In this document: positions 5,501 through 20,931 of the stretch, piece after piece
Layout of the letters: each line of letters starts with the position of its first letter
Numbering within the stretch: position 1 is the stretch's first letter
Assembly: GCA_964621445.1 (NCBI GenBank)
Contig: CAZUNO010000005.1
Coordinates: 1 to 57,237 of the forward strand
Reading direction: 5' to 3'
DNA length: 57,237 nt
Source of the DNA: Candidatus Hadarchaeota archaeon
Lineage (GTDB): Archaea > CAYQAE01 > CAYVLA01
Notes under the pieces: generated by a model
Database searches by the model: none
The model's input: only the letters and a program-made list of their open reading frames with translations
Told to the model about the DNA's origin: nothing
Translations under genes and position numbers: made by a program

Positions 5501-8500
5501 CGTAGTGACCCGGGGTATGGCTCCACACGGGGTAGGTTAATCTGAGGGTTTCATTTGGTGCCAGACTTATGTCTCCGGACTCGCCCCACACGATGAGGTT
5601 TGAGCCAAAGGTAAGGTTATCGAAACTGATGATTCCCTCGGGCAGGGTCTCCGAAACCACCAGATTGGTGGCCTGGTCGTTTCCGATATTGGTTAGATCC
5701 AGGGTGACGGTGCTTCTTATCTCCGAGCTCCGGGGCCAGAACTCCTCCCTGGCCAGCAGGTACTCACAATCAATCCTCCTCTCGATCTCCACGTGGGGAG
5801 AGAGCACCTCTATGGATATGGAGTATTCGACGTCGGGTATATCCATGCCGGAGGCGGTTGCGGTTAGGGTATTGACACCGAAGTCCTTCCCGCTTATCAC
5901 GATGTTGACGATCTCGCTCTGCTGACCGTCCAGGGTCCCGTCCCATATCAGGTAGGTTCCCCACTCCAGTTTCAGGCCCTGGCTTAGTTCCAGGATCACC
6001 TGCGTGTTCTGGACCGGGCTGTTACCTATATTCCTTATGGAGATGGAAAGGGTCTCCGTCTCCCCCACCGCTATCTCCGAAGGGGGATCGATGAACTGTA
6101 CAACCACCGGGGAGAGATAGGTCTGGGCCAGTATGTAGTTGGAGTACACCTCGTATACATTGCCCAGGAAGGCGTGCTGGTCCTGGTGGGTTATCTTGGC
6201 CTGGAAGGGATACCTTCCCTCGTTGGTGGCCACCAGGGTGGCCGTGAAGGAGAAGTACTGCCCGACCTCCACACTAGTTCCCTCCGGGAAGTCGGTGCTC
6301 TCGACCAGGAACCCGGGGAAGGTCAGGGATATATTCTTGGCATCCCGGTTCCCCTCGTTCTTGACCGTGGCCGTTATCTGGACCTTTTCCCCCACGTTAA
6401 TGAAGATCATGTCCTGGCCCTCTTTCTCCACTATGGGCCGGTCGGCCTCGAAGGAGGTGAAGTCCAGGTGGGGACCAAGGGCCGTGAAGTAGAAGTCCTC
6501 GGTGTGTAGGGTGTAGGCGTCGTTTCGAACCCCTGACTTGTGGCAAACCCCCTTCCAGTACACGGTTACGAACCCGTATGAGGCCTCCCCGGGGTTAGTT
6601 ATGGTGGTGGGTTTCACCGAGTAGGTGATGGAAACCTTGTTGCTGGAGCCGGGCTTTATATCCCCGGTCCAAGTCTCGAAATCGGATATCAGGTTAGGAG
6701 GCGTGTTGTCAACCACGGTAACGTTAAGGGCCGGGGAACCACCTACGTTCTCAACCCCGATGGAGGCCTGGGAGTCCTTTCCTATGAATAACGGGTCCCG
6801 GCTGAGTGACTTGGTCACCTCCAGTTCGGACCTTGAGGGGTATATCAGGAACTGCACCGGCTTCCTGACCTCGTGTTCCTGGCCGTGGGCATCCGTGTAA
6901 CTGAGAAGCAGGTCATAGGTCGCGGCCTCCCTCACGTCTATGTCCGAGGAGAAGTTTAGGTAGAAAGGCCTCTCCAGGGTGCCCTGGGTCAGGTAGTACC
7001 TCACGCTCTCCCCGCCGACAACCTTCTCCCTGTAAACAGGTCCCCGGGAGGAGGTGAGCTCCCCCTCCTCTACGACCAGATACACGATACCGGTGACGTT
7101 GGTGGCGGTGAGCTGGATGTCGTAGGCCCTGGACCCGGCGGTGTTTTTGGCGGTTACCACCTGGGTCAGATCATCGTCGGCATATATGTTATAGACTATC
7201 TGGCCCTCATCCAGGCCCGAGGGACTCCCGGTGGGGACATCGCTGACTACTTCAAAAACCGGGGGCTGGAACTTGTATATCCTGAGATCGGCCCCGAACT
7301 TCAGCAGCTCCTCATCTAGCTGTTGTGGGCCTTTAAGAAAGATCTGGATATCCCGGTTCTCGCCCAAAAACAGCTCCTGGAACTGGTTGGTGGAGGTAAA
7401 GGTCTTGGTGGCGGTCTGGTAACCGGTCTGGGCGGTGACGTTGACCTGCCAGTTGCCTCCCTCCTGATCCTGGAAGGTGTAGGGCCTTCCCTCCTGGACC
7501 TTTCTAATATAGGTATAGACCGAGTAGCCCTCGAAAACCAGCCTCTGCCTGGGGTTTATCTCTATCTCAGCATATGGCTCGCTAGGGTCATAGGTTATGT
7601 ACTTGAGGTTGAAATCGTAGGCAACCCCGTCCTTGGTCTCCTGGTCAATTATGATGGCATTGCTTTTCTGCTGGAGGGATATATCCTGCAGGTGGACCCG
7701 GCTCCCGTTCCTGTTCAGGGTCACGTTCCCGGTTAGCACCCCGGTCTCGCTGAGCATGAAGTTGAACTGGTACCCCTGGTATTCGAGGCTGTCCCTGGAT
7801 ATGGTCATCCGGTACCTGTGCAGGGAATCGACCTGCATGTAGCTTGAATCCAGGACCGTGCCGCTGAACCTGTTCTTGAAGGAGGCCACGAAGGAACGCA
7901 TGTGACCGTTCTCGTAGTCGAGCGTGGAGGCATGGTTCTGGTTGGCCGAGTCATCGGTGGCATTGATGTAGTACCTGACCGCGGTGTCGGTAACGAAGGG
8001 GCCCACTATCACCTCGTAGAGCCCGGTGACGTTGTTCAGGCCCATCTCCCTGCTCGACCAGGACCCGTTATCGTCCAGGTGGAGGGTAACCGAGTCCACT
8101 CCGCTGGGGTCGCTCACCGAGGCCCTGATCACCATGTGGTCCTCGCTCTCGGTGTACAGAGGGATGGCCTCGGGCTCGATTTCCGGGGCCTCCACGTCCT
8201 CCTTCTTCACGATTATGGTGGTATTATCATAGACCTCTGCCCCCCAGTTGAGGTGTTCATCGAAGGCGGTGATGTTCAGTATGCTTACCCTTAGCTCCTC
8301 TCTCTGCCCGATATCGTTATTGACGTAAAGCCACTGGTAGTTATATCCCTCGGTGCCCTGTATATCCTCCACGAAGACCTGGCCGTCCACCTCGTAGGCT
8401 ATCTCCGCGGTCTCGATCTCGCTTACGTCGAAGATATCCGCCTCGATCACCACCTCCACACCCTCGAAGGTGATAACCGGGAACTCCGTGGTCAGGTTTA

Positions 8501-8591
8501 TGGTCGGGGCGTCCTCATCCGCCGCAAGGATAGGGGCAAGGAGAAGTAAGAGGGCTAGTGATATTATAGCCAATTGAATTTCAGGCTTCAT
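2529..8591 (-). CDS. Giant (2020 aa) membrane-anchored surface protein with tandem Ig-like (CARDB/DUF11-type) domains
   Basis: Signal peptide MKPEIQLAIISLALLLLLAPILA; repeated xNxGxxxAxNVxV motifs; single TM (LIMPFLLWAAVAGVVAGVYYY) about 200 aa from the C-terminus; acidic tail. Confidence 0.88.
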   Translation of the reverse strand: MKPEIQLAIISLALLLLLAPILAADEDAPTINLTTEFPVITFEGVEVVIEADIFDVSEIETAEIAYEVDGQVFVEDIQGTEGYNYQWLYVNNDIGQREELRVSILNITAFDEHLNWGAEVYDNTTIIVKKEDVEAPEIEPEAIPLYTESEDHMVIRASVSDPSGVDSVTLHLDDNGSWSSREMGLNNVTGLYEVIVGPFVTDTAVRYYINATDDSANQNHASTLDYENGHMRSFVASFKNRFSGTVLDSSYMQVDSLHRYRMTISRDSLEYQGYQFNFMLSETGVLTGNVTLNRNGSRVHLQDISLQQKSNAIIIDQETKDGVAYDFNLKYITYDPSEPYAEIEINPRQRLVFEGYSVYTYIRKVQEGRPYTFQDQEGGNWQVNVTAQTGYQTATKTFTSTNQFQELFLGENRDIQIFLKGPQQLDEELLKFGADLRIYKFQPPVFEVVSDVPTGSPSGLDEGQIVYNIYADDDLTQVVTAKNTAGSRAYDIQLTATNVTGIVYLVVEEGELTSSRGPVYREKVVGGESVRYYLTQGTLERPFYLNFSSDIDVREAATYDLLLSYTDAHGQEHEVRKPVQFLIYPSRSELEVTKSLSRDPLFIGKDSQASIGVENVGGSPALNVTVVDNTPPNLISDFETWTGDIKPGSSNKVSITYSVKPTTITNPGEASYGFVTVYWKGVCHKSGVRNDAYTLHTEDFYFTALGPHLDFTSFEADRPIVEKEGQDMIFINVGEKVQITATVKNEGNRDAKNISLTFPGFLVESTDFPEGTSVEVGQYFSFTATLVATNEGRYPFQAKITHQDQHAFLGNVYEVYSNYILAQTYLSPVVVQFIDPPSEIAVGETETLSISIRNIGNSPVQNTQVILELSQGLKLEWGTYLIWDGTLDGQQSEIVNIVISGKDFGVNTLTATASGMDIPDVEYSISIEVLSPHVEIERRIDCEYLLAREEFWPRSSEIRSTVTLDLTNIGNDQATNLVVSETLPEGIISFDNLTFGSNLIVWGESGDISLAPNETLRLTYPVWSHTPGHYVYEGAVATYTNPQKNPFESHSEQLDVWVLGNRPFLVQEEPVLVLDEGGAPLQGPVSYNDTVTFQVRVRNIGNQNATDIDLGPWMEGQVGEMDFVMLNEDQVEETIAGGIGPGDPLTISLTFSVLEDVESSQDYDLDVPVSYSDLEGRDYSLVMGSRLEARSTQVMVSFNKSFSRDHVSPGDQPVLEITVTNVGDTDLEDLVPSVDTPDGVAMSSWLGIDLLREGQSGKMVVEFEPVFPPEGKVYQSYQGFATSVQYRSYRGQTTTPRDGEHIVLSVAEPYLRVERSITSPVLLVREPGWPYSEMIMENVTIRVTNSADISASQVNITEELPEGLYTSEDLGSSEITWGGDLVLEPGESVSFTYPVWCFDEGEYSFDKARVDYIDGESHDYISYSQGLEKVNGVGTRPYLVWNGEMSQDPVESITYNDTVLLGIPVKNVGNGKTPELELEGLGSGELLDGWELLNPEEVEETLSGGLSAGSSIDIQLHLRLLRDVTIPGNVPIGLDLNYIDGSENEYSISRTVEIFARPPNIGLSTDISNNHYRLMPEEPGYVNLSVKNVGDAALFSLTPEVECPEDVEVKAIHVIDVLPEGGVGNLSVEFKGVQLGQSVGRTISGINLSVIFTDFREYQHTRPVERLNLTIERPKVTIRGVEAEEKTRLGRTYQMVFTIANDGTYPASQVTIDVGDIKKWMEEISVEGGALNGDSVLLAQSVAPLSESKVTISGKVKEKGEFSVVPGVTYIDGIGSSYNLIPDPVGVKVGEKLIKLIMPFLLWAAVAGVVAGVYYYETRVAEKIKGHQLGSLASSVVTQVEATGVVPPLIPFKSGKLSLAELSHLLSQYLSKADGSGVEKADKTTFIISHPQSRLVPGQDFKNLGVVRDAYMLVADMIQNRVKSSEVVPPTFLVQGFKLGISDIVTLLSLAVVAARKKGRLPKNIKINSSTRVSAGKAKRAQEEEEEEEEESESLVDEPEGQEMPEEEPEKPEMETESAE

Positions 8592-9409: not shown

Positions 9410-10207
9410 CTAGATGCCGAGCATGGATCTAAGCTTCGACTTGCCCTTCCCGCCTGTGCCACCCAGGGCATCGGCCTTGACCTCCACTTCCTTCTGGTTT
9501 GATATCTTGCTGGCCAGCTTGATGTGGGCCTCGGCGGCCGGGCTATCCTTCTTCTTCATTACCACCGGGACCTTCAGGTTCGCGGATTTCTTTACCTCAT
9601 CGTCCTCGGGAATAACCGCCAGTATGTCCAGGTCCAACATCGAACCCACCTCATTGGATGAGATCTCGCTCTTGCTTTCGCCCGACCTGTTGATAACCAC
9701 GCCCTTTATGGGCACTTCCAGGCTCTGGGCCATTATCTTCATCCTCAAAGCATCGGCCAGGCAGGCGAGTTCGGGATTGACCACCATGATTATCTCGTCG
9801 GAAACGGAGAGGGGAATGCTGCTCTCCTTGGAAAGGCCCGAGGCGCAATCCAGGATGACCAGGTCAAACCTCTCGGACAGCTCATTTACGACCTCTCCCA
9901 GTCTCTTTGGATTGGCCCTGGAAAAACCGCTTAGCGAAAGACCGCTGGGAACTACATGTAAGCCCCCGGGACCATCGTAGAGGGCCTGGTCCAGTGACGC
10001 CTCACCGGCCAGAACCTCGTGAAGGGTTACCGGGCTTTTCTCCAGCCCCAGGTAGAGCGCCAGATCGGCCATGGCCAGGTCGGCGTCGACCACCGCAACC
10101 TCATCCCCGGCCAGGGACAGAGCCGTGCCCAGGTTGATGGTCAAGATCGTCTTACCGGTTCCTCCTTTTCCGGAGGTTATCGCCAATATTTTGGTTTGAT
10201 TACTCAT
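9410..10207 (-). CDS. minD: MinD/ParA family ATPase (archaeal MinD-like)
   Basis: Deviant Walker A SGKGGTGKT, VDADLAMADL, VILDCASG, C-terminal amphipathic KLRSMLGI. Confidence 0.9.
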   Translation of the reverse strand: MSNQTKILAITSGKGGTGKTILTINLGTALSLAGDEVAVVDADLAMADLALYLGLEKSPVTLHEVLAGEASLDQALYDGPGGLHVVPSGLSLSGFSRANPKRLGEVVNELSERFDLVILDCASGLSKESSIPLSVSDEIIMVVNPELACLADALRMKIMAQSLEVPIKGVVINRSGESKSEISSNEVGSMLDLDILAVIPEDDEVKKSANLKVPVVMKKKDSPAAEAHIKLASKISNQKEVEVKADALGGTGGKGKSKLRSMLGI

Positions 10208-10340
10208 AACGGTTCCCTTTCCTAAAATAATTTTAATTTAAGATCGAGCATTATTCTATAATTAGCGCATATATTGCTTATTTTAAGTTTTTTCTGGTTC
10301 GGGCTTAAACAGGTATCGATTTCGCAAAGATTTTCCAACA

Positions 10341-11723
10341 TCACACCACCGGCGTTAGTTCCGGAACCGGAAATCCCTGGCTCACATCCACATCGACGTT
10401 GAACAGGCCGGTCCGGGGCATCTCCCCATATATGTAGAAGCTACCGAAGCGTTCCATGAGCTTGAGGTCCAGGTCAACCATGGTCCTGAGCTGACGGGTT
10501 GAGTCCAGGGTGGACCTGGTTATGATGATGATCAGGTCCTCCCCCAGCCTGGCCTTTGCTATCTCGTTGGCGCACTTCCTGAGGGTCCTCTGCATTCCAA
10601 ATGCGTGCTCAAAGCGATCCACGTTAATAACCCTGAGCATATGCCCCCAGGACTCATTCCTCTTCTCCTCCTCGACTCTTAGCCACATCTTCTCGCTCTC
10701 CTCCTCCGACTTCGAGAAGGTGTCCAGGACGTAGGGGAGTTCCTTATTCCCCACACCCGCAGCGAACATGGTAACGTAGGTGTCAAAGGAATCCTCCGAG
10801 ACGTACTGGGTGATATCGTTCCGGATCTGCTCGGGGGCAAACTCGGCCGGGGGGATGAATAGCACCCCGCGGTCCTTGGCAATGAAATTCAGCACGAAGG
10901 GGCGAACCAGTATATCCACCCATTGGTAGGGCACGTTGTTACCCATCTCCATCAATATGGTCCCTCCCTGCAGGCACTTTCCCACCGAATCGTCCAGCAC
11001 CGGCGAGCCACTATAGAAGGGGCATTTCTCGTCCGAAAAGGGCATCCAGGGCTCCTCTTCCTCCGGCTCCTTGATCCTCAGTGGAGGAAATCTCCTAAAG
11101 ATCCCGTTCTTCAGGGTGTATACGTATCTCAGATTTCGTATCTCGCACTCCCTCAGCTTGTCCAGACGTACGTTCCTGACCCTCCGGCCGTCTATCTCCG
11201 AGTCCGAGAGGGTTACCACCCCGTCAACCAGGAACTCAAGCACCCTGGTGTCCATGAACTCGCTCACCAGGACCAGGGTCAGACCCTCCTCCCGAGGCCA
11301 ATCCACCAGCTTCTTCTCGGCCTGTATGGCGCTATCCCCCAGCGATGAATGGATGGCATCCCAGGTATCAACGATTACCGTCGCGTCCTTGAGCCCTTCA
11401 ACCTTTGACCGTACCTCTTTCAGGATGGGAAGTCCTCCTTCCTCCCCCATGCCCGAGGTGTCAACATTGACCTCCCCCACCATTTCAGTGGCGTCGAATA
11501 TGTTGTCGACCTTGACGTACTTCCTGGCCCATGGAAACTGCTCGTACAGCTTGTCCGGTTTCACCCTGGTGGATACGTAGAATCCGTTAACGTTGGCCTT
11601 CTCCACCATCAGGGTCAGGGCCAAAGTCGACTTCCCCATTCCTGGGGCACCCTTCACCAAAAGGGAGTAACCTCCGGTTTTTTTCAGGGCCTCTGGAATC
11701 TCATCTGGAATCAGGACTGACAA
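10341..11723 (-). CDS. KaiC/RecA-superfamily P-loop ATPase, GvpD-like two-domain protein
   Basis: LLVKGAPGMGKST, YVSTRV, VIVDTWDA, EFLVDGVVTL, RLDKLR; degenerate second RecA-like domain. Confidence 0.8.
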   Translation of the reverse strand: MSVLIPDEIPEALKKTGGYSLLVKGAPGMGKSTLALTLMVEKANVNGFYVSTRVKPDKLYEQFPWARKYVKVDNIFDATEMVGEVNVDTSGMGEEGGLPILKEVRSKVEGLKDATVIVDTWDAIHSSLGDSAIQAEKKLVDWPREEGLTLVLVSEFMDTRVLEFLVDGVVTLSDSEIDGRRVRNVRLDKLRECEIRNLRYVYTLKNGIFRRFPPLRIKEPEEEEPWMPFSDEKCPFYSGSPVLDDSVGKCLQGGTILMEMGNNVPYQWVDILVRPFVLNFIAKDRGVLFIPPAEFAPEQIRNDITQYVSEDSFDTYVTMFAAGVGNKELPYVLDTFSKSEEESEKMWLRVEEEKRNESWGHMLRVINVDRFEHAFGMQRTLRKCANEIAKARLGEDLIIIITRSTLDSTRQLRTMVDLDLKLMERFGSFYIYGEMPRTGLFNVDVDVSQGFPVPELTPVV

Positions 11724-11954
11724 ATTTAGGAACCACTTTGAATTTATCTATGGGGAATGTTAATAATTTCTTATAACTATAATCGAGCCAAATTAAGCAA
11801 TCTGCAAATTCCTTGTTATATTCGCAAGTTATATGGTCCTGTGACCGGTTCAACCGGCCAGACCGGTTCCCGTTTGAGAATTGCACGCGCGAAATTCGTA
11901 AGGGACAAAATGAGCACCGCCAAAACGCAACAAAATGATACATCTCGCAGCAAA

Positions 11955-12440
11955 CTACGAGGATGCAACGGGAGGGGACTCCATACCACCCTCGAAGACC
12001 TCGTCTATCACCGACACGTCCAGGTCCCGGATACCCTCCTTCTTCCTCAGGGTCTCCATCATGTTGATTAGCTCGCCCGAATTCTTGGTGGATACAATTG
12101 CCACGATCTCGTTCTTGCTCTCGCATCTTGCTATTAGCTCCGTGCTCTCCACCTTCTGGAGCTCCTCCACCACTTCCTCCACCTTGGACTGGGTGAACAT
12201 GTCCAGTAGGTACTTCTCTATCTCAATTCTCAACAGAGCCCGAACCGTGTACCCCAGCTTCTCGTGGTCTATGAGGACGGTGAACTTCTTGATGATGCCG
12301 TTATCTATCAGCTTCTTTACCCGGAAGTGAACCGTGGTATCAGGTATATCCAGCTTCTCCCCTATCTTGGTGAAGGGGGTCTTGGCGTCCTCCTGCAGTT
12401 TACCTATGATCTTCAGGTCAGTCTCATCGAGCTGGTACAA
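11955..12440 (-). CDS. Lrp/AsnC family transcriptional regulator
   Basis: LDETDLKIIGKLQEDAK...TVHFRVKKLIDNGIIKKF...IDHEKLG HTH signature; GGAGG SD before TTG. Confidence 0.92.
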   Translation of the reverse strand: MYQLDETDLKIIGKLQEDAKTPFTKIGEKLDIPDTTVHFRVKKLIDNGIIKKFTVLIDHEKLGYTVRALLRIEIEKYLLDMFTQSKVEEVVEELQKVESTELIARCESKNEIVAIVSTKNSGELINMMETLRKKEGIRDLDVSVIDEVFEGGMESPPVASS

Positions 12441-12632
12441 GCAACGTCCTCCGGGGGGTATATCTTCATTTTTGGCGTTCTCCGCGAGATTCTCTATTGG
12501 TGTAATAGATTTCGCACATTACTCGTATAAATATGTTGCGTTCGCAATTTCTCTGTAGATATACCCGAGAGGTCCTATATCAAGGTGTCGATGCAGACAA
12601 AAAATTACAAGAAAGTAGAAAAACCGGGAACC

Positions 12633-13337
12633 CTAGCCCTTGACCAGGACCTCCATGCCATTGGAGCCTATCTGCATGGGGTACTTCTCCATCCTGTGGG
12701 CCGTCTTCCTCATCTTTACCACCCGGAGGAACCGCTGGAATTTCCTTTCCTGTACCTCCTCCAGAGAGAGCTGGATGACACCGTCCGCGATGTACTCCTC
12801 GACCCCGAAATTGCTGAACTGGCTCTTGGGCCCCGCCTCGGATATGAACATCGAGGTCAGACCCATCTCCTTCAACCTGGAGTTCAATATGTATAGGCTC
12901 TTCCTGGCCTGATACACGTTCTCGAAAAGCACCATCAGGGCAGATATGGAATCGATCACCAATCTCTCGGCACCTATGCTGGCCTTGGCCTCCTCTATTC
13001 CCTGTATGGTGTTCTGGATATCGAAGGTACTGGGGGATACGAAGAATCGATGAGGAATGGCCATGAGACACCTGAAGGTACCGTCCTCCTCCAGCTTCTC
13101 GAAGTTGAAACCGAAATTGCTGGTCTGTTCAAAGAATTCTGACTTGGAGGCCTCAAAACTGACGTATATGCCGCTCGATCCCTTCTCGCCCCCATTATCC
13201 AGGAAATGACTGGTCAGCAACGTCTTACCGGTTCCCGGATAACCGCTCACCAGGATGGTCGAGCAGCCCGGGTATCCACCATTGAGAAGTCCGTCCAGGC
13301 CCTTGACGCCGGTTTCAACTCTCTCTATGTTTGACAT
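12633..13337 (-). CDS. Single-domain KaiC-like ATPase
   Basis: TGVKGLDGLLNGG, GYPGTGKT, YVSFEA, RLVIDSIS, EEYIADGVI, RVVKMRKTAH. Confidence 0.92.
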   Translation of the reverse strand: MSNIERVETGVKGLDGLLNGGYPGCSTILVSGYPGTGKTLLTSHFLDNGGEKGSSGIYVSFEASKSEFFEQTSNFGFNFEKLEEDGTFRCLMAIPHRFFVSPSTFDIQNTIQGIEEAKASIGAERLVIDSISALMVLFENVYQARKSLYILNSRLKEMGLTSMFISEAGPKSQFSNFGVEEYIADGVIQLSLEEVQERKFQRFLRVVKMRKTAHRMEKYPMQIGSNGMEVLVKG

Positions 13338-13433
13338 GAACCATCAGCACCAATATGTTATTGTGAGGAAGCGATCAGCAATACCAACTCACTTCAAATT
13401 ACTTACGCTTATTTTGGAGAATATGTCTATGCA

Positions 13434-13447
13434 TTTAAATTTTTCGC
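13434..13447 (-). promoter_or_regulatory. Putative BRE/TATA promoter upstream of the kaiC-like gene
   Basis: Minus strand GCGAAAAATTTAAA, matching archaeal BRE followed by a TATA box. Confidence 0.5.
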
Positions 13448-13511
13448 ATAAATTGTATCTTTTTTAGCAAATTATTCGTTTTTTCTTTGTAACTGGCCTA
13501 GATACCTCGCC

Positions 13512-15350
13512 TCATGAACCCCATTCCACAAGACCCAGCCTCTCCAGGGTCTCCGGCCTGGGCCTCCCCCTCTCGTTCCAGCCTCTAAGCTCGTAATACT
13601 CCCCCAGCATGGAGTCCAGGTCCACGGTCTCCCCCCTGGCAGGTCCCTGGGGCATGGTCTCGGACAGGCAACGGTAGGGCAGATAGTCCTGTTCCCTGTC
13701 AAATCCCTCCCGGACGTTGAAGACTCGTGTGAGATTCCATATCCGTTCCCCGGTCTCCTTCAGGGAATTAAGCTCCTGGTACCGGTACCCGGTGGCCGCG
13801 CTAACCATTCGCTGGATCTCCCTTAGGGTGAATCCAAAGGTGCCGAACAGGCATATGCCGGCGGAATCGACCACCGATATCTCGTCCTGGCTATCCACCA
13901 CCAGCTGGGCCTTTCCCCGGGAGGCAAGGGGGTCCGCCCCACCCCTCATGGCCAGCAGCTCCTGCATGGCCGGATAGCCCCTCAGGTGACAACCTCCCCT
14001 GTCCGAGGTCGCGTAGGCCAGGGCCATTCCCTTGGCCGCCCGCGGCGAGTAGGCCGGGAGTTCCAGTCCCTTAACCTCCATGGCGAATTCACGGGACTCC
14101 GGGAAACTTTCGCTCAGCTTCCTGACCCCGCTGGCCAGGAGGGAGCCGACCTCGTTCATCTCCCCCATGCTCCTCAACATCTCCACCATGGCCTCCGGCC
14201 TCCCCCATTCGGGCTCCAACCCGCCTAGATCCTGGCTGCTTATGACCCCCTTCTCGAACATCTCCATGACGAAACCCATGATGTTCCCTGAACTTATGGT
14301 ATCCATTCCGTAAAGGTCGCACATCTTCTCCAGGTGGATGATCAGGTCGGGCCTTGAATTCCCGCACTGGGGACCGAAGCTCCAAACCGTCTCGTAGTCA
14401 GGTCCCTCGGTGGAGTCCCCCTGGAATTCTCCCTCCTCCACCAGTGAGACCTTGCTGCAGGCTATGGAACACCCGAAACAGGCGGCGTCCCTTACCCAGA
14501 ACTCCTCCCGCCACCTCTCCCCGGAAAGCTTGTCGGCGTCCTCGAAGTTTCCCCGTCTGAAGTTCATGGTGGGCAGCGCCCCTGCCTCGTTAATCGTTTC
14601 CAGGATATTGCAGGTTCCCTCCTGGGGCAGGCTCCGGACCGTGGTCTCGTTCATCCTCAGCATTCGGTGTGCCGTCCAGCAGGCCTCCCTCATCTCATCA
14701 AGGTCATGGACCTCGATTTCGTGCGAACAGCCCTTCACGCACACCGCCTTCAAATTCTTGGAACCCATGACCGCCCCGGACCCACCTCTTCCAGCCGCCC
14801 TCTTGCCGCTGAATATGCTGGAGATGGTTGAGAGCCTCTCCCCGGCCGGGCCTATAACCGCCTTCTCGTACCCGGTCCCCAGGAGCCGGTCCAGCGCCCC
14901 TTGACACTCCTGGGTATCAAGTCCCCAGAAATCCTCCGCGGAGATCAATCTGGGACCATCATCATCAGCGACCAGGGCCTTGGGCTCCTCCGATATTCCT
15001 TTAAAGACCAGCCCGTCGTAGCCGGCGAACTTCATGGCCGGGCCAAGCCCACCACCACAGTGAGCATCGAGGAAGGTTCCCGTGTGGGGACTCTTGGTAA
15101 CTATACAGAAACGGTTGCTCCCCGGGGCCATGGTACCGGTCAGGGGGCCAGAGGCCATTATGAGCAGGTTCTCGGCCGACAGGGGATCTATCCCGGCCTC
15201 CATCCGGGTTATCATCAGGAACGCGCCCAGGCCCTTCCCTCCCAGAACCAGCTCGGTCACCCGAGGCTCCAGCTCCAGTTCGTCAAAAGATCCGCTATCC
15301 AGGTCGACCTCCAGTAACTTACCCATGAAGCCCTTCCATTCCTCGCTCAT
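13512..15350 (-). CDS. aor: Aldehyde:ferredoxin oxidoreductase family protein (tungstopterin)
   Basis: TKSPHTG, AAGRGGSGAVMGSKNLKA, CFGCSIAC, GPDYET, DLYGMDTIS, EVKGLELPAYSPR, SDRGGCH. Confidence 0.93.
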   Translation of the reverse strand: MSEEWKGFMGKLLEVDLDSGSFDELELEPRVTELVLGGKGLGAFLMITRMEAGIDPLSAENLLIMASGPLTGTMAPGSNRFCIVTKSPHTGTFLDAHCGGGLGPAMKFAGYDGLVFKGISEEPKALVADDDGPRLISAEDFWGLDTQECQGALDRLLGTGYEKAVIGPAGERLSTISSIFSGKRAAGRGGSGAVMGSKNLKAVCVKGCSHEIEVHDLDEMREACWTAHRMLRMNETTVRSLPQEGTCNILETINEAGALPTMNFRRGNFEDADKLSGERWREEFWVRDAACFGCSIACSKVSLVEEGEFQGDSTEGPDYETVWSFGPQCGNSRPDLIIHLEKMCDLYGMDTISSGNIMGFVMEMFEKGVISSQDLGGLEPEWGRPEAMVEMLRSMGEMNEVGSLLASGVRKLSESFPESREFAMEVKGLELPAYSPRAAKGMALAYATSDRGGCHLRGYPAMQELLAMRGGADPLASRGKAQLVVDSQDEISVVDSAGICLFGTFGFTLREIQRMVSAATGYRYQELNSLKETGERIWNLTRVFNVREGFDREQDYLPYRCLSETMPQGPARGETVDLDSMLGEYYELRGWNERGRPRPETLERLGLVEWGS

Positions 15351-16591
15351 TGATCTCCCTTACCCTCAATTCTAAATACCTCTCGGGGGCACCATTCCTC
15401 GCATTCCGGACTTCCCCCGCACAGGTCGCATATCATAGGCCTTCCTATATCATCCAATCTGATGACCCCCACCGGGCAGGCCGACACGCATTCCCCGCAT
15501 CCATCGCACATCTCGGGATCCAACCTGACGGATCCCAGCTCCGGGTCGAAGGAAAGGGCATCCCGGGTGCAGGCATCAACGCAACGCCCGCACTGGGTGC
15601 ATACCACCGGTCGGTACCCGTTCTTGACCTTGTCGATAACCAGCCTGGAAGCAGTCAGGTCATAGGCCCCCTGGTGGGCGGCGCTGCAGGCCATCTGACA
15701 GATCCGACAACCGGTGCAGTTCCCGGCCTCGGCCACCACGATCCTCATCTTGCCCTGGGGAAGGGATTTGGTGACCCGTCTGGCAGTCTCATTTCCGTGA
15801 ACCACCCTTGATATCGATGATACCATCGCCCTGGGGTCGGGGGCCTGGATAACGTTTCGTCCAAAAACCGTCCCCCTGGCCCCGGCCCTCAGGGCCTCCT
15901 CGACCACCTCCAGGGCATCTCGCAGGGTCTTGGATTTGGCGCCTCCCAGGATCAGGATTGGTATCCCTGCAGCCTCCGTGACCCCCCTGTAGAACTCGAC
16001 GTCGTTTGTATAGGGAGCCTTGATTGCATCGGCCCCGATCTCGGCGGACATCCTTATCGATATCTTCACCAGCTCGTTATAGTTTGCCCCGGTGATCCTT
16101 TCCCCCAGGGGGATGGGCTCCACGAAAAAGGGAAGACCGACCTCGTCGCACTGGCGGGCAAACCGGGCCACCTTGGCCACGTGCTCGGCCTCCTCCCGGT
16201 CATCAGCATACCCGATGAAGAAGTAGATGACGATGGCATCGGCACCCATGGCCAGTGCCTGGCGGGGAGAGGTCATGTACCGGTGCTGGACGTGTCTGGA
16301 GGGGAGGGTATAGGTCTTGGACCGGAAAGCGTTGGTCCAGTCGGCCCTTATCAACATGGCAGGGGCCTTCCTGCCCCTGAACAGGTCTCCGATCCTGGAC
16401 GCCTGTCCCGGGCTCACCAGTATGCCGTCGGCCCCTCCCCGGGAAACCGAGCGGATTGTCCTCTTGAGATCTATAACCCCCTTTATGGGCCCCAGCATAT
16501 ACCCGTGATCGGCAGCTATTACCACTGCCCTCCCGTCGCTGGGATCTATTATACGGCTAAGCCTTATCTCCTTCCCGGGACTGGTTAACAC
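15347..16591 (-). CDS. Class I (DhnA/FbaB-type) aldolase fused to a C-terminal 4x[4Fe-4S] ferredoxin domain
   Basis: AADHGYMLGP, Schiff-base GADAIKAPY, ILGG, GRNVIQ; then CTGCRICQMAC, CTQCGRCVDAC, CDGCGECVSACP, CDLCGGSPECEEWCP. Confidence 0.88.
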   Translation of the reverse strand: MLTSPGKEIRLSRIIDPSDGRAVVIAADHGYMLGPIKGVIDLKRTIRSVSRGGADGILVSPGQASRIGDLFRGRKAPAMLIRADWTNAFRSKTYTLPSRHVQHRYMTSPRQALAMGADAIVIYFFIGYADDREEAEHVAKVARFARQCDEVGLPFFVEPIPLGERITGANYNELVKISIRMSAEIGADAIKAPYTNDVEFYRGVTEAAGIPILILGGAKSKTLRDALEVVEEALRAGARGTVFGRNVIQAPDPRAMVSSISRVVHGNETARRVTKSLPQGKMRIVVAEAGNCTGCRICQMACSAAHQGAYDLTASRLVIDKVKNGYRPVVCTQCGRCVDACTRDALSFDPELGSVRLDPEMCDGCGECVSACPVGVIRLDDIGRPMICDLCGGSPECEEWCPREVFRIEGKGDQ

Positions 16592-16592
16592 C

Positions 16593-17381
16593 TTACATAC
16601 AACCTTCCATTATATTTCGGACCCGCTCTATCTCCGCATGGATCCCCTCCTCCAGGCAGGAACCGGCAAGAACGATTCCGCCAACGCCGGCTTCCAGCCC
16701 CCTGACAAGGACATCATCCTCGGCCCTTTCCTTTAAAACCAGAAGAACCGGAGCATCGCCCGAGGCCTCGACTATATCCCCGGTGCAGCCCAACTCCTGG
16801 CTGGCGGGAACCATCACCGCGTCCGAACCGGCCTCCAGGGCCATCCGGGCCGCCATCTTCAGGCTGTCCGAGTAGTTTCCCTCGGATATCCTCTCCCCAA
16901 AGGGCCTGGCCTCCGCAATCAGGGGCATGCCGCACCTCGAGCACTCGGAGGCTTGATTGGAAACCGATTCCAGGTTATCGGCCTCGTCCCCATCATCAAC
17001 ATATCCCACAAAGAAGGTGACCACCAGGCCACATGCCCCAAGGTAGGAGGCGTGTTCGGCCCCGGAAACGGAGACGTGGGTGGTTTCCTTTCTGGGGAGC
17101 GGAAAGGAGCCGTCCCTGTCCGCGTTAGTCCAATCGGACCTTACGAGAAGCGACGGCGCTCTCTTGCCCTTGAAGAAATCCACCTGGCGAGACGCCTCCC
17201 CTGGGCTGAGGGTGATGGCATCCACCCCGACACCTATCATCTCCTCCAGCCCGGACCTCATGTCCACCAGGCCCGGCGTGGGCCCTAGGGCCAGGCCGCG
17301 ATCTGCGCTAACTATCAAACTCGGAGGACCGTCACCAACAACCCTTGATAGACGGATCTCCTTTCCGGTCTGTGAAGGCAA
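16593..17381 (-). CDS. Class I aldolase-like paralog, apparently non-catalytic
   Basis: Collinear with the downstream aldolase (GKEIRLSR, APSLLVRSDWTNA, FFVGY) but has GSDAVMVPA at the Schiff-base Lys position. Confidence 0.8.
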   Translation of the reverse strand: MPSQTGKEIRLSRVVGDGPPSLIVSADRGLALGPTPGLVDMRSGLEEMIGVGVDAITLSPGEASRQVDFFKGKRAPSLLVRSDWTNADRDGSFPLPRKETTHVSVSGAEHASYLGACGLVVTFFVGYVDDGDEADNLESVSNQASECSRCGMPLIAEARPFGERISEGNYSDSLKMAARMALEAGSDAVMVPASQELGCTGDIVEASGDAPVLLVLKERAEDDVLVRGLEAGVGGIVLAGSCLEEGIHAEIERVRNIMEGCM

Positions 17382-17495
17382 TTGAATGAACCTCCATCTC
17401 CAACCTCGTTTATCTCTTAACTATTTGGTCCCCGCGGGCCGAGAAAGACTTTTATCTCCCTCAGAGAGGCAAGGTTTCAGGAAGGTGGGGCATTA

Positions 17496-19088
17496 ATGTA
17501 CGTTCTTGCAGGTGACATTGGAACCGGAAGCACCAAATCAATCATAGTTGATATCGAGACCGGAAGCATAATCTCGAAAGCCGCGGCCGACTACAAGCCA
17601 GGATTCGTGGTTCCCAAGGAGCATCCCAACGGAGCCGAGCAGTGGCCGGATCCCTGGTGGCAGGGAGTGGTGAGCACCGCCGGAGAGGTCATGGAAAAGT
17701 CTGGGATCGACCCCCAGGACGTGGGCGCCGTTTGCTACTCCGGGCTCTACGGGGGCTCCGGAGTCCCCGTCGACAGGGACATGAAACCCCTCAGACCGTG
17801 CATGATATGGCTCGATCAGAGGGCCTACAGGGAGTGCGACATCCTCCGCGACGAGATCGGTGAGCAGACGTTCGGCGAGATCTCGGGGAACTACACCATC
17901 CATTCCTACTATGGGTACACCAAGATGTTCTGGTTCATGGTCAACGAGCCCCGCCTTTTCGAGAAGACCAGGTACTTCCTGACCCCAAATGGCTATGCCA
18001 TATACAGGATGACCGGCAACGCGGTCACAGACTACTGCTCCATGGGGAATTTCGCCGGGGTTTTCGATATCGAGAACTACGAGATCTCGGATGAGATCCT
18101 GGAGGAACTCAATAGGTCAGCACGTAAGAGGGTTTCAACCGAGTTCAAGGACCTGGAACTCACCTCGGATATGTTCGGGAAGCTGGTTTCCTCGGACGAT
18201 GTGGTGGGAGAGATCACCCCGGAGGCGGCCGATGAAATCGGGGTCCCCAAGGGTACCCCGGTGGTGGCCAGCGGGATTGACGCCCCAGTATCTCTGGTGG
18301 CCACCGGAGGGGTGGAGTCCGGGTTTAACGGCCTCATGACCGGCACCAGCTGGTGCTGGGGAATTCTCCAGGACAGGTCGGATGCGGAATATGCCGAGAG
18401 GCTCATCAACTACCCCCACGCCATCAAATCGGAGGAACTCATATATTCCTTCGGCGGTGGCGCCTACCCAGGCGGCTCCGTTGACCCCTGGTACAAGGAA
18501 AACCTGGGAGCCGGCTCGGAGGCCAAGGACCTGGACAAAATGGCCTCGGGTATCCCCCCTGGCAGCCTGGGAGTGATATTCCACCCCTTCCTCCAGGGCG
18601 AGAGGACTCCAATCTGGAACACCTCGGCCAGCGGCGGCTTCTTCGGTCTCAGGCACCTCCACCAGGCCGGCGCGATCTACAGATCGGTGCTCGAGGGGGC
18701 TGCATATCTCCATAGATGGAACGTCGACCAGGCGGTAAAATCGGGAATATCGATCGAGAAGCCCACGGTGCTGGTCGATGGGGGAAGCAAGTCCTCGGTC
18801 TGGAGGGCCATCCTGTCCGACGTGTTGCAGATAGAGATGGAGTTCATGCCCGAGTTCCCGGGAACCCCGTTCGGGGACGCTCTCATCGGGGCCGTGGGGG
18901 TAAAGGAGGTTAAGCCGGAGGCCATAAAGGAGTGGCTTCCCGAGAAGCACACGGTGGAACCCGACCCCTCCAACGCCGCGGTTTACGAGAAGGGCTACGA
19001 TCTATTCAAATCCATATATGAACGCCTCCAGGGCATCTATCCCGACTTCTACGATTTCTACCGGGAGTCCAGGAACCTCGAGGAGTGA
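17496..19088 (+). CDS. FGGY-family carbohydrate kinase (xylulokinase-like)
   Basis: AGDIGTGSTK, AEQWP, MIWLDQRA, SGIDA, TGTS, PFLQGERTP, RSVLEG, DGGSKSSVW. Confidence 0.92.
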   Translation: MYVLAGDIGTGSTKSIIVDIETGSIISKAAADYKPGFVVPKEHPNGAEQWPDPWWQGVVSTAGEVMEKSGIDPQDVGAVCYSGLYGGSGVPVDRDMKPLRPCMIWLDQRAYRECDILRDEIGEQTFGEISGNYTIHSYYGYTKMFWFMVNEPRLFEKTRYFLTPNGYAIYRMTGNAVTDYCSMGNFAGVFDIENYEISDEILEELNRSARKRVSTEFKDLELTSDMFGKLVSSDDVVGEITPEAADEIGVPKGTPVVASGIDAPVSLVATGGVESGFNGLMTGTSWCWGILQDRSDAEYAERLINYPHAIKSEELIYSFGGGAYPGGSVDPWYKENLGAGSEAKDLDKMASGIPPGSLGVIFHPFLQGERTPIWNTSASGGFFGLRHLHQAGAIYRSVLEGAAYLHRWNVDQAVKSGISIEKPTVLVDGGSKSSVWRAILSDVLQIEMEFMPEFPGTPFGDALIGAVGVKEVKPEAIKEWLPEKHTVEPDPSNAAVYEKGYDLFKSIYERLQGIYPDFYDFYRESRNLEE

Positions 19089-19091
19089 CCC

Positions 19092-19967
19092 ATGAAGGAC
19101 ACGGGATCTTGGAACCATAGGAAGGGCATGGTCAGAAGGCTTTCCAGGATATTTGCCCCCGACGGCCGAGGCCTGATAATCGCCGCCGACCATAGACAAC
19201 GCGGGATACAGGAGGGCATGGAAAATTTCGGGGATTTCGCGGATCGTATATTGTCGGTAATCCCCTACTCGGACGCCCTGGTCACCACCAAGGAGCCCCT
19301 GGCCCATCTGATCACCCACCACCCAGCGGTCACCGCGGGGACCGGGCTGTTGCTGTCCCTGAACCGGACCGGTCTCTCCGGATCATCCTTCGAGCTTGAC
19401 GACAGGCCGGTTGTGGGGCCGAAAACGGCCGTGAAATGGGGCTTGGAGGGAGCCAAGCTACTGCTGAGGATAAACCCTTCCCGTGAGGAGACCAACTCCC
19501 AGCTATCCATGTGCCGGAACGTATGCGATGAATGCGACCGCCTCGACCTGCCCCTGATAATCGAGCCCCTTTACTGCGCGCCCCAAGGGGGTTCCCTCAA
19601 GGTTGACGATTCACCGCAGAGGATACGTTACTCGGCCATCATCGCCGCCGATTTCGGGGTTCCCGCCCTCAAAATACCCTACCCCTCGGGGCCGGACAAG
19701 AAGGCCAGGCAGGAGAGTTTCCGGGATATATTGGGATCGGTTAACTCCAGGGTATTCGTACTGGGAGGAAGGAAGTCCTCGCTGGAGAGCTTCCTGGCAA
19801 AGGTCCACGAGGCCATTCAAGCTGGAGCCTCGGGCCTGGTCATCGGGCGTAACGTCCTTCTCGACGACAACCCCCCGCTAGTGGCCTGCGCCCTTAGAAA
19901 CATCGTGCACCGGGACCAGGACCCAAAAACGGCCTTGAAAGGTGCGAGGTCGGAGGTCTCCGGTTGA
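19092..19967 (+). CDS. DeoC/LacD-superfamily class I aldolase (Cgl0159-like)
   Basis: [55 protein letters not shown]. Confidence 0.8.
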
Positions 19968-20545
19968 CCACGGATTACCGGGCCCACCCCACGGCCATAG
20001 TCTCCGACCAGGCCACCATAGGGAAGGAGACCAGGATATGGCACCACGCCCAGGTGCGAGAGGAGGCGGTCATCGGGGACCGTTGCATACTCGGGAAATC
20101 GGTATACGTTGACAAGGCGGTGAGGATAGGCTCCGGGGTCAAGATCCAGAACCGGGCCTCGATCTACCAGGGAGTGACCATAGAGGACGAGGTGTTCGTG
20201 GGGCCCCACGTGGCCTTTACCAACGACAAGTACCCCAGAGCCTTCTCATCCAGCTGGGAGATAGTACCCACCCTGGTCAAAAAAGGAGCATCCATAGGGG
20301 CCAACTCCACAATAATCTGCGGAATCACCATAGGGGAATACGCCCTGGTCGGGGCCGGCTCGGTGGTAACCCGGGACGTCCCCTCCCAGGTCCTGGTCCA
20401 CGGAAACCCGGCAAAACCGGTGGCCTATGTCTGCAAATGTGGCCATCCCCTGCGGCCCATAGAAGAGGATTCCCGTAAGGTGACCATCGAATGTCCCAGG
20501 TGCGGAAGTGAAAACCGGATCCCACCCTCCGTTTCGAAAATGTAA
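19964..20545 (+). CDS. Hexapeptide-repeat acyltransferase (WbpD/WlbB-like) with C-terminal zinc ribbon
   Basis: [39 protein letters not shown]; CKCG...CPRCG. Confidence 0.88.
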
Positions 20546-20583
20546 TAAGCCCTCCCGCCAAGTATTTCAGCGGGAATCAGGAA

Positions 20584-20931
20584 ATGAGCCATCAAACCGG
20601 AAAGGACAAGAAGCTAAAGGCCAACGTAAAGCGGGACAAACAAGCAGCGTTCTCCACCGACGTTCTGGTGAACCATTCTCCCACCGAATTCAGGATGACC
20701 TTCTTCGATACCTGGGCCACCAGGAAGACCCCCTCCGGGGGTATACAGCAGAGGAAGGACGTGGTTGCCGAGGTAGTGCTAACCCCGGAACATTTCAAGA
20801 GACTATGCAAGGCCATAAACGATAACCTTCAGAAATATGAATCGAGATTCGGGGACATATCATTCTCCAAGGCCGATACCCAAGGCCCCGAGCAGTCCAT
20901 GGGGGAGACCGAAAGCTCCGCCTACAGATAG
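20584..20931 (+). CDS. DUF3467-like protein
   Basis: FSTDVLVNHSPTEFRMTF...VVLTPEHFKRL...NLQKYESRFGDI pattern. Confidence 0.75.
   Translation: MSHQTGKDKKLKANVKRDKQAAFSTDVLVNHSPTEFRMTFFDTWATRKTPSGGIQQRKDVVAEVVLTPEHFKRLCKAINDNLQKYESRFGDISFSKADTQGPEQSMGETESSAYR

Follow-up and report, generated by a model that had tools for sequence, protein, structure and literature searches.

Gene content of the divergent locus

We analysed contig C5 of a Candidatus Hadarchaeota genome (89 contigs totalling 3.21 Mb; completeness 96%, contamination 4%), over positions 1 to 57,237 (hereafter the window, i.e., the whole stretch of 57,237 nucleotides), which carries two divergently transcribed gene arms (Table 1). 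The minus arm encodes a pyranopterin aldehyde:ferredoxin oxidoreductase (AOR), a class I aldolase fused to a polyferredoxin (AldFd) and an aldolase-like protein that we term the pseudo-aldolase (pAld). The plus arm encodes an FGGY sugar kinase, a further class I aldolase (Ald3) and an acyltransferase. The locus consists of two conserved modules placed back to back. We consider it about an even bet that they act as proposed below, the first as an aldolase-oxidoreductase complex and the second as a kinase-aldolase pair.

Table 1. Coordinates, strands and domain matches of the genes and gene parts at the divergent locus.
Feature	Position	Strand	Size and domain matches
AOR (WorL-type, pyranopterin aldehyde:ferredoxin oxidoreductase, W or Mo)	13512-15350	-	612 aa; AFOR_N 219.5 bits, AFOR_C 451.8 bits
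Aldolase::polyferredoxin fusion (AldFd)	15347-16591	-	414 aa; DeoC/LacD 125.4 bits, residues 23-249; 4Fe-4S dicluster families, residues ~283-408
Parts of AldFd			DhnA-type class I aldolase, residues ~1-275; WorS-type polyferredoxin with four predicted [4Fe-4S] sites, residues ~283-410
Pseudo-aldolase (pAld)	16593-17381	-	262 aa, TTG start; DeoC 44 bits, profile positions 3-166 of 229 only
Divergent intergenic region between the arms	17382-17495	.	114 bp
FGGY sugar kinase, XylB-like subfamily	17496-19088	+	530 aa; FGGY_N 146 bits, FGGY_C 68 bits; SGLYGGSG motif
Ald3, Cgl0159-like/DhnA-type class I aldolase	19092-19967	+	291 aa; Cgl0159-like 76 bits, DeoC 54.5 bits
Hexapeptide-repeat acyltransferase, sixth gene	19964-20545	+	Hexapep 81 bits

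A sequence-only reading of this DNA had described five genes, a 114-bp divergent gap and abutting or overlapping genes within each arm. This layout is borne out by the open reading frame (ORF) coordinates and by domain matches with E-values of 1e-11 to 1e-135, far past chance. AOR and AldFd overlap by 4 bp and a single nucleotide separates AldFd from pAld, while the kinase and Ald3 genes are 3 nt apart. In the 114-bp gap, a purine-rich GGAAGGTGGGG lies immediately 5' of the kinase ATG. The acyltransferase gene overlaps Ald3 by 4 bp and belongs to the same operon; its product scores 98 bits against the NeuD/PglB/VioB sugar acetyltransferase subfamily (cut-off 160), and its position is kept in the loci of two relatives (L003 and L013). 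The locus is flanked by housekeeping genes, with KaiC-like, GvpD-like and MinD-like genes on one side and DUF3467, Toprim-like and PCNA genes on the other. Compared with a route of the isomerase-kinase-aldolase type, the window carries no isomerase gene.

The same reading had counted three aldolase paralogs. Three aldolase-fold genes are indeed present, but they are distant paralogs (pAld and AldFd are 35% identical over 249 aa, Ald3 and AldFd 26.5% over 279 aa) and one has no catalytic lysine, so that two can be catalytic. The three aldolases of the window would then be one live, one dead and one separate partner of the kinase.

The minus arm is a widespread three-gene unit

A word-indexed protein search with the fusion returned 411 proteins at E <= 1e-10. 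Among the 120 matches listed, two are shorter (334 and 281 aa) and the others have both halves and a length of 403 to 443 aa. The sources include Bathyarchaeia, Thermoproteota, Lokiarchaeota, Sigynarchaeota, KSB1 and Calditrichota; database names of the fusion are "fructose-bisphosphate aldolase" or "4Fe-4S binding protein". We also used an alignment of 30 fusions to scan a set in which each species is represented by a single genome. At least 137 archaeal and bacterial species genomes encode a relative of the fusion, and we examined the best 80 loci. AOR lies directly downstream of the fusion at all 71 loci where 1500 bp or more follow it, and an aldolase paralog lies directly upstream at 73 of the 76 loci where 800 bp or more precede it, the misses being L025, L033 and L063. 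The unit spans Bathyarchaeia, Brockarchaeota, Asgard archaea, Chloroflexota, KSB1, Bacteroidota, Aminicenantes and Planctomycetota. Most of the 80 examined loci are bacterial, and the gene set is not specifically archaeal. Three Desulfobacterota loci have a stand-alone polyferredoxin and an AOR, an ancestral-looking state.

Two Asgard versions of the unit (L025 and L033, from Promethearchaeota and Sigynarchaeum) are without the upstream pseudo-aldolase, and L033 has an aldolase-like match after AOR. The genome of the window also has the ancestral-looking state, an ordinary Class II arrangement (contig C28:16322-18659, plus strand), where an unfused polyferredoxin (37% identity to the polyferredoxin half) is followed by an AOR-family gene.

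The fusion joins an intact aldolase to a four-cluster subunit

The closest characterised relative of the aldolase half of AldFd is the ADH synthase MJ0400 of Methanocaldococcus jannaschii (E 1e-40; Foldseek TM 0.88 on target), followed by the fructose-bisphosphate (FBP) aldolase of Thermoproteus tenax and then by E. coli LsrF. Across 30 diverse orthologues, K191, D28, H29, E158, Y194, G216, G217 and R245 are invariant. K191 aligns with K177 of the T. tenax enzyme, and of the 76 sequences in the fusion/Ald3 cluster, 75 have the Schiff-base lysine at this column. Like the DhnA aldolases of known structure (MJ0400, 2qjg-2qji; T. tenax, 1ojx and 1w8s; LsrF, 3gkf and 4p2v), AldFd is predicted to have a TIM barrel (TM 0.79-0.89 on target) and keeps the Lys, Asp-His and GG/GR elements. 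It differs from them by its polyferredoxin, by an extra loop and by the residues that align with W144, Y146 and R148 of T. tenax, which are Glu158 (invariant), Ile160 and Leu162. We take Y146 to be the catalytic acid/base and R148 to be the ligand of the distal phosphate; if these roles hold, AldFd differs from ordinary FBP aldolases and probably takes a substrate without a second phosphate. The curated NCBIfam models agree that the protein stands apart, with scores below the cut-offs of PRK07226 (202 against 241), ADH synthase (171 against 299) and archaeal FBP aldolase (146 against 430), and with lower scores still for Ald3 and pAld. An identity with the Lsr autoinducer-2 (AI-2) system is likewise not supported by the models for it: the LsrF model NF006081 gives 113 for AldFd and 58 for Ald3 (cut-off 297), and LsrK gives 109 for the kinase (cut-off 528). 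The AlphaFold model of AldFd is of good quality (pLDDT 89.8, pTM 0.82); only the extra, family-specific loop, the RADWTNAFRSKTYTLP region, is poorly defined, with low model confidence at residues 91-97.

In the polyferredoxin half, 15 of 16 cysteines are invariant among the same orthologues and the last one is nearly so. Because all 16 are conserved, four [4Fe-4S] sites are predicted. The nearest matches are MvhB, the small subunit of WOR5 (6x6u_B, E 9e-21), AorA (8c0z_C, 3e-19) and 9mqx_E. Rather than the ferredoxin that would serve as a free acceptor in the sequence-only reading, this half is a fused, four-cluster WorS-type subunit like those of WOR5/ASOR and AorA, suggesting that the aldolase is tethered to the oxidoreductase.

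The upstream paralog is a conserved pseudo-enzyme

We aligned the upstream paralogs and the fusions of the 80 related loci and the window. At the column of K191, none of 64 pAld orthologues has a lysine (A in 26, I in 24, V in 9, T in 2, M in 2 and L in 1), and the window protein has a methionine. The pAld family is also mostly without the D28/H29 pair, the GG phosphate loop and R245 of the GR motif. It does keep a set of residues common to the fusion (R82, D84, R90, G127, P154, G163, E184, G186, D188 and P193). Because catalytic residues are lost while this shared set is kept, pAld looks like a conserved pseudo-enzyme and is probably a non-catalytic subunit.

A predicted heteromer of pAld with the aldolase half of AldFd points weakly in the same direction, with an ipSAE of 0.39 compared to 0.00 for the best of three controls. 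This mark is reached by 116 of 157 solved complexes and by 2 of 215 mismatched pairs; at values of 0.60 or below, it is reached by only 18 of the 157 solved complexes and by both mismatches. The runs, made with alignments of our own, agreed in at least 94% of contacts, with a partner pLDDT of at least 89. Since homo-oligomers of related DhnA aldolases have been solved, the pass may reflect likeness to these.

The oxidoreductase is closest to broad-range AORs

The AOR matches both AFOR_N and AFOR_C over its full length, and its translation contains CFGCSIAC (CxxCxxxC) and a distal GIC cysteine. The closest solved chains are 9mqx_D (E 2e-134) and Pyrococcus furiosus AOR (1aor, 4e-134), then 9g7j and AorB (to E-121); WOR5 is far more distant (3e-69), and the archaeal GAPOR model gives 39 bits (cut-off 1300). 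Going by these matches, the enzyme is nearest to the broad-range AORs acting on non-phosphorylated aldehydes, and not to GAPOR. In a FastTree phylogeny of 75 AORs, the 65 encoded after a fusion all fall into one clade, at a weakly supported node (0.43). Ten paralogs lie outside: four of the same genome, one from L038 and the second AORs of five Brockarchaeota-type loci.

According to the main text of a 2026 classification of tungsten oxidoreductases (WORs), Class II enzymes consist of WorL and a WorS with four [4Fe-4S] clusters (PMC13328260). By its domain make-up the minus arm is such a Class II enzyme, with WorS fused to an aldolase. It resembles P. furiosus WOR5/ASOR (6x1o, 6x6u), Caldicellulosiruptor bescii GOR and the AorAB core of Aromatoleum aromaticum AorABC (8c0z) in having a large AFOR subunit beside a four-cluster small subunit. 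However, its small subunit has an N-terminal class I aldolase of 275 residues, which lies outside the class definition in that main text, and the dead paralog is a third fixed gene. Its large subunit is nearer to the PfAOR/AorB type than to WOR5.

The unit is surrounded by genes of peripheral sugar catabolism

To describe the gene context of the unit, we grouped the neighbouring ORFs of the 80 loci and of the window (1118 in all) into clusters and annotated one representative of each; counts below are per 81 sources. FGGY kinases occur in 16 (three close relatives and the window among them), and PfkB kinases lie near the unit in 11 loci and three more. LarA-like nickel-pincer racemases were found in 19, one representative scoring 456.7 with the lactate racemase model (cut-off 460). 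Two kinds of xylose-isomerase-like TIM barrel are present in 16 and 13, TauE/SafE exporters in 15, UPF0261 in 10 and DUF4432 in nine, GlcD-like FAD oxidases in nine and a GlcF-like Fe-S protein in eight, LacI-type repressors in seven, and FucI-like isomerases in four. Genes of the class II FBP-aldolase family occur in six, plus one more, and class II aldolases in four; in most of the 80 loci no further aldolase is present. An L-arabinose isomerase AraA (825 bits, cut-off 622), a D-lyxose isomerase and a protein with the GlcNAc-2-epimerase fold are single cases. The glycoside hydrolases (GH) near the unit include GH2, GH5, GH42, melibiase, GH38 and GH43. As judged from these annotations, the context of the unit is peripheral sugar catabolism. 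The recurrence of the racemase together with the 2-hydroxyacid oxidase suggests that the product acid is a 2-hydroxy acid (glycolate, lactate or glycerate), which would make the aldehyde glycolaldehyde, lactaldehyde or glyceraldehyde.

In eight Anaerolineae loci (L062, L065, L069, L077, L079, L085, L087 and L089), a long conserved operon surrounds the AOR unit. It begins with PfkB, xylose-isomerase-like, GlcD-like, GlcF-like, ketose-epimerase-like, UPF0261, creatininase-family and LarA-like genes, and continues with the three-gene unit, a TauE/SafE exporter, and UPF0261 plus a phosphoenolpyruvate-hydrolase-like gene. Given the exporter and the PfkB kinase, a sulfo-sugar substrate is possible for this operon. 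A sulfo-Embden-Meyerhof-Parnas-like pathway for sulfoquinovose was considered in view of the TauE/SafE exporters of 15 Anaerolineae loci, the PfkB kinases and a YihS-like epimerase; Ald3 matches YihT with an E-value of only 6e-4. A methylglyoxal bypass (dihydroxyacetone phosphate (DHAP) to methylglyoxal to pyruvate) was considered and dropped as energetically pointless, on reasoning alone.

The plus arm is a conserved kinase-aldolase pair

The best NCBIfam match of the kinase is xylulokinase (TIGR01312) at 262 bits, compared to a cut-off of 380, and it stays further below the cut-offs for gluconokinase (169 against 649), AI-2 kinase (109 against 528) and fuculokinase (87 against 471). It is at most 27% identical to its closest paralog in its own genome and, on these scores, is a member of an uncharacterised XylB-like FGGY subfamily. 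Orthologues with 35-42% identity are found in Bathyarchaeia, Thermotogota, Atribacterota, Synergistota, Asgard archaea and others. An alignment-based scan gave 553 stretches encoding a relative of the kinase, 80 loci of which were kept. Within three genes of these 80 kinase genes, there is a class II aldolase-fold gene in 21 loci, a FucI-like isomerase in 20 (13 + 7), a xylose-isomerase-like barrel in 12, DUF2961 in 11 and a GH29 fucosidase cluster in six. The slot directly 3' of the kinase, taken by Ald3 in the window, holds a class II fold gene in L107, L126 and L130. A fuculokinase-type C1 kinase with a FucA partner was entertained for this subfamily; it is weakened by a representative of the class II fold neighbours that scores 309 with the L-ribulose-5-phosphate 4-epimerase model (cut-off 251).

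The Lys, Asp-His, Glu-Pro, GG and GR motifs are all present in Ald3, which would on that basis be catalytically intact. Its family comprises 1079 proteins at E <= 1e-8. While a close-relative scan with Ald3 alone gave no locus, an alignment-based scan gave 274 stretches, of which 80 loci were kept, 79 of them new. At 68 of these 79 distant loci an FGGY kinase stands beside the Ald3-family aldolase. The Acidimicrobiales loci with an Ald3-FGGY pair often add a GH4 glycosidase (25), a beta-hydroxyacid dehydrogenase (25), a LarA-like gene (26) and transporters. This company indicates that kinase-Ald3 pairs may yield an aldehyde that needs a redox step. The Ald3-FGGY cluster of L171-L249 (Acidimicrobiales, bacterial metagenome-assembled genomes (MAGs)) appears to be uncharacterised. 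In six bacterial MAGs with an Ald3 that is 43-46% identical, the gene is instead part of an inositol-like operon, which runs from LacI through two xylose-isomerase-like barrels, IolB/KduI, a GFO/IDH/MocA dehydrogenase and the aldolase to a kinase of the ADP-PFK/GK family, a D-2-hydroxyacid dehydrogenase and a glycerate kinase.

A tree of 47 FGGY kinases has four groups, i.e., the window subfamily (support 0.93), the Anaerolineae kinases beside the AOR unit (1.0), the Acidimicrobiales kinases beside Ald3 (1.0) and the Bathyarchaeia kinases beside the AOR unit (1.0), the last two joining at 0.97 in this small sample. These groups suggest that the AOR unit has recruited different kinases in different lineages, and that at least one kinase lineage occurs with either kind of aldolase.

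The arms are adjacent in one archaeal family

The sequence-only reading had treated the two arms as one linked set. We find them back to back only in four genomes of a single archaeal family, and elsewhere they part: the AOR unit is absent at 78 of 78 nearest kinase-orthologue loci and at 79 of 79 Ald3-family loci, the latter having neither an AOR nor a separate fusion-type match, and Ald3 and the kinase subfamily of the window are absent from the other 77 AOR-unit loci. Among the 80 kinase loci, only two have the AOR unit or Ald3, and these lie on the same contigs as L013 and L003; the other 78 have neither. A theme that does recur is a sugar kinase, sometimes an extra aldolase (approximately 16 of 80 loci), and the AOR unit.

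In the four family genomes the fusion is 73-77% identical and Ald3 51-60%. The records of the relatives are labelled Hadarchaeota or Thermococci. Our set for the phylum comprised five genomes; the fusion is present in all three of the same family, and one genome of another family (98% complete) has no match at E <= 1e-40. The genome of the window is rich in sugar genes, with 32 xylose-isomerase-like barrels, six or seven FGGY kinase genes, four FucI-like and three LarA-like genes and five AOR-family genes. Two class II aldolases lie beside another FGGY kinase on contig C24, and a canonical MJ0400-like DhnA gene with the M-M-Y-P-R-G motif is present on contig C1.

A proposed mechanism and its alternatives

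In the two-module reading, the aldolase domain of AldFd would form a Schiff base with a ketose phosphate and release DHAP and a short non-phosphorylated aldehyde, most likely glycolaldehyde, lactaldehyde or glyceraldehyde. The adjoining AOR would oxidise this aldehyde to the acid on the spot, and two electrons would exit through the four clusters of the fused polyferredoxin to ferredoxin. The pseudo-aldolase may be a structural partner that fills places in the aldolase ring or oligomer. In the second module, the kinase with its own class I aldolase (and the acyltransferase) would make and cleave a sugar phosphate. We put slightly better than even chances on the two arms serving one route in this archaeon. 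In this family both modules would then probably form a single catabolic route, in which the AOR unit disposes of the aldehyde and/or cleaves a second phosphorylated intermediate. The scheme put forward in the sequence-only reading, from sugar to sugar phosphate, on to DHAP plus aldehyde, and from there to acid and reduced ferredoxin, is what best fits the comparative context, but the arms it connects are unlinked outside the family. More speculatively, and with somewhat less than even confidence, we infer that pAld, aldolase::WorS and WorL may constitute a hetero-oligomeric "aldolase-tungstoenzyme", a sixth architectural class of tungsten oxidoreductase. Here a ring of live and dead barrels would hold several oxidoreductase/Fe-S pairs and a reactive C2-C3 hydroxy-aldehyde would be channelled from the Schiff-base site to the pterin site with no passage through the cytoplasm, as a widespread, ferredoxin-yielding ending of anaerobic rare-sugar and deoxy-sugar pathways.

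Several observations speak against the two-module reading. AldFd is without the catalytic tyrosine of FBP aldolases, so its chemistry may differ from a plain aldol cleavage, and the complex of pAld with the aldolase half is predicted only weakly. An extra class II or 2-keto-3-deoxy-6-phosphogluconate aldolase is present in approximately 16 of 80 loci. In the window itself, an intact Ald3 directly follows the kinase, so that the fused aldolase is not needed as a source of aldehyde. The AraD-like, epimerase-type neighbour of the nearest kinase orthologues hints that the kinase may act at C5 (ribulokinase-like) and not at C1 (fuculokinase-like), in which case simple cleavage would give no DHAP. 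The node of the AOR clade has low support (0.43). A search of the 96%-complete genome for the tungstate-binding protein WtpA (TIGR03730), but not for TupA, gave no match, and the metal may be W or Mo. Finally, synteny among the four family genomes extends to the flanking KaiC, DUF3467 and Toprim-like genes, and shared ancestry therefore suffices to explain the adjacency of the arms.

This last point leads to the alternative that the arms are mere neighbours. The kinase-Ald3(-acyltransferase) operon would be self-contained, with its aldehyde handled elsewhere, and the AOR unit would act on another sugar phosphate supplied by kinases encoded elsewhere. We consider this rather unlikely, although the arms are conserved singly and remain uncombined outside the family, the entire neighbourhood is syntenic in three relatives, and the abundance of FGGY kinases, xylose-isomerase-like barrels and AORs in the genome offers other partners. 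In addition, both units occur on separate contigs of one genome in five pairs of loci (L016/L093, L054/L094, L017/L096, L048/L110 and L024/L115). Against it, a 114-bp divergent promoter region is a common layout of co-regulated operons, and AOR units elsewhere have, directly upstream, FGGY kinases drawn from at least three other subfamilies. Moreover, the Ald3-FGGY pairs of Acidimicrobiales often come with a dehydrogenase that processes the aldehyde (25 loci), a role for which only the AOR could serve here. A different role for the fused barrels, as a ring scaffold for nanowire-like WorL/WorS pairs with AOR as a general detoxifier of free aldehydes (for example from Ald3), seems improbable. 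Class III and IV WORs do form LS "nanowires", according to the main text of PMC13328260. DhnA-type aldolases are large homo-oligomers with 10-20 chains per solved entry, the dead paralog accompanies the unit as described above, and an extra intact aldolase exists here and in approximately 16 of 80 loci. Nevertheless, Lys, Asp-His, Glu-Pro and both phosphate loops are invariant in the 30 fusions and lost in the paralog, which is the pattern of selection for catalysis, and the absence of another aldolase from most loci also argues for an active enzyme.

The labels of database entries, the resemblance of the aldolase fold to archaeal FBP aldolases and the existence of a Class II WOR that oxidises glyceraldehyde-3-phosphate, C. 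bescii GOR (PMC13328260, main text), would fit a glycolytic metabolon, in which the fused aldolase is an FBP aldolase and the AOR a GOR/GAPOR-like glyceraldehyde-3-phosphate:ferredoxin oxidoreductase. The AOR is, however, closest to the PfAOR type and scores 39 of the required 1300 with the GAPOR model, a comparison made with that model and not with the C. bescii GOR sequence. AldFd remains below all FBP-aldolase cut-offs (146/430 and, for the subfamily model, 202/241), the counterparts of T. tenax Y146 and R148, with the roles assumed above, are Ile and Leu, and the genome has its canonical Y-P-R DhnA enzyme on contig C1. With a context of peripheral sugar catabolism rather than core glycolysis, we regard this possibility as very improbable. 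The faintest of the alternatives, in our estimate, is a reverse or biosynthetic direction, with reduced ferredoxin driving acid reduction and the aldolase condensing the aldehyde with DHAP, or with an ADH-synthase-like step towards aromatic amino acids and AOR clearing an aldehyde by-product. AORs can reduce non-activated acids (PMC9295118), and MJ0400 is the nearest characterised relative of the aldolase half. The ADH synthase score is nonetheless far from its cut-off (171 versus 299), a separate MJ0400-like gene is present in the genome, and the kinases, isomerases, glycosidases, transporters and sugar-type repressors around the unit are a catabolic signature. The unit is also common in bacteria, which use the standard shikimate entry.

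Relation to known systems

No published description of the aldolase-polyferredoxin fusion, of the pseudo-aldolase or of the gene set was found, which agrees with the sequence-only reading that the set is undescribed. The main text of the 2026 classification (PMC13328260), as distinct from its supplementary dataset, does not contain the words "aldolase", "fusion", "DhnA" or "sugar", and "Cgl0159" does not occur in the searchable full-text literature. What appears new is a Class II tungsten oxidoreductase that has a pseudo-subunit and whose small subunit is fused to an aldolase, and in the window its pairing with an operon of a kinase and a class I aldolase.

By analogy, the nearest functional precedent is RhaEW (Chloroflexus aurantiacus; YuxG of Bacillus subtilis), which likewise joins a sugar-1-phosphate aldolase to an oxidant of the hydroxy-aldehyde and is encoded alongside an isomerase and an FGGY kinase (PMC3870299). 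The paper describes it as a validated fusion joining L-rhamnulose-1-phosphate aldolase to L-lactaldehyde dehydrogenase, one that forms no DHAP or lactate without NAD+ (PMC3870299). The two systems are non-homologous, RhaE being class II-like and RhaW NAD-dependent, whereas here the aldolase is of class I, a pterin enzyme with ferredoxin acts as the oxidant, the connection passes through the electron-transfer subunit and a pseudo-subunit is added. In DmpFG and BphIJ of aromatic degradation, an aldolase hands a toxic aldehyde directly to an oxidising partner; these are pyruvate class II aldolases with CoA-acylating, NAD-dependent dehydrogenases, without a pterin enzyme, Fe-S wire or pseudo-subunit.

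The fucose, rhamnose and D-arabinose routes of E. coli (FucI-FucK-FucA plus AldA/FucO) resemble the proposed scheme in their order of isomerase, FGGY kinase and aldolase, yielding DHAP and lactaldehyde or glycolaldehyde and then the acid, and an archaeal route via ribulose-1-phosphate aldolase follows the same logic (PMC9700705). The likeness extends to the relatives of the window kinase, which stand beside FucI-like isomerases and, in six loci, GH29 fucosidases. Unlike these routes, the aldolases of the window are of class I and not class II, the aldehyde oxidant is ferredoxin-linked and there is no isomerase in the window.

Only 5 of 92 clades of tungsten oxidoreductases have a member of defined physiological role (PMC13328260). 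The fusion of an electron-transfer subunit to an aldolase would be a rare built-in clue to the substrate of a clade, namely the product of aldol cleavage of a sugar phosphate. If the proposal is true, it would reveal the physiological substrate of an uncharacterised WOR clade and account for how many uncultured anaerobes, with Bathyarchaeia, Asgard archaea, Anaerolineae and KSB1 among them, draw low-potential reducing power from a sugar's aldehyde half, without excretion of a diol. It would also add a channelling architecture with a conserved pseudo-enzyme subunit, and offer a compact aldolase/oxidoreductase pair for biocatalysis.

Other features of the window

A run of P-loop genes on the minus strand (9410-13337) abuts AOR and encodes an archaeal MinD (282.8 bits, above the cut-off), a 460-aa GvpD-like/KaiC-like protein and a 234-aa single-domain KaiC-like ATPase. 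The KaiC-like gene stays beside AOR in L001 and L013, with 81-84% identity. At lower coordinates in the window, a giant ORF of 2020 aa (2529-8591, minus strand) contains DUF11, CARDB and NPCBM-associated repeats and is probably a surface protein; it is adjoined by a gene like those of type II/IV secretion ATPases (64-2091). A ribose-5-phosphate isomerase A gene (28850-29539, plus strand) lies 9 kb off the cluster. In a Bathyarchaeia locus (L037:11173-11940) such a gene is directly 3' of AOR, which may be coincidence. A 638-aa protein (37955-39871, plus strand) combines PUA, phosphoadenosine phosphosulfate (PAPS)-reductase and C-terminal 4Fe-4S ferredoxin domains, and an ORF of 1021 aa (52174-55239, minus strand) is without a Pfam match at E <= 1e-6. 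No RNA sequencing run was listed for the region 13400-20600; part of it is present in five DNA sequencing runs, two of which contain at least half of the sampled words; both are microbial mat metagenomes.

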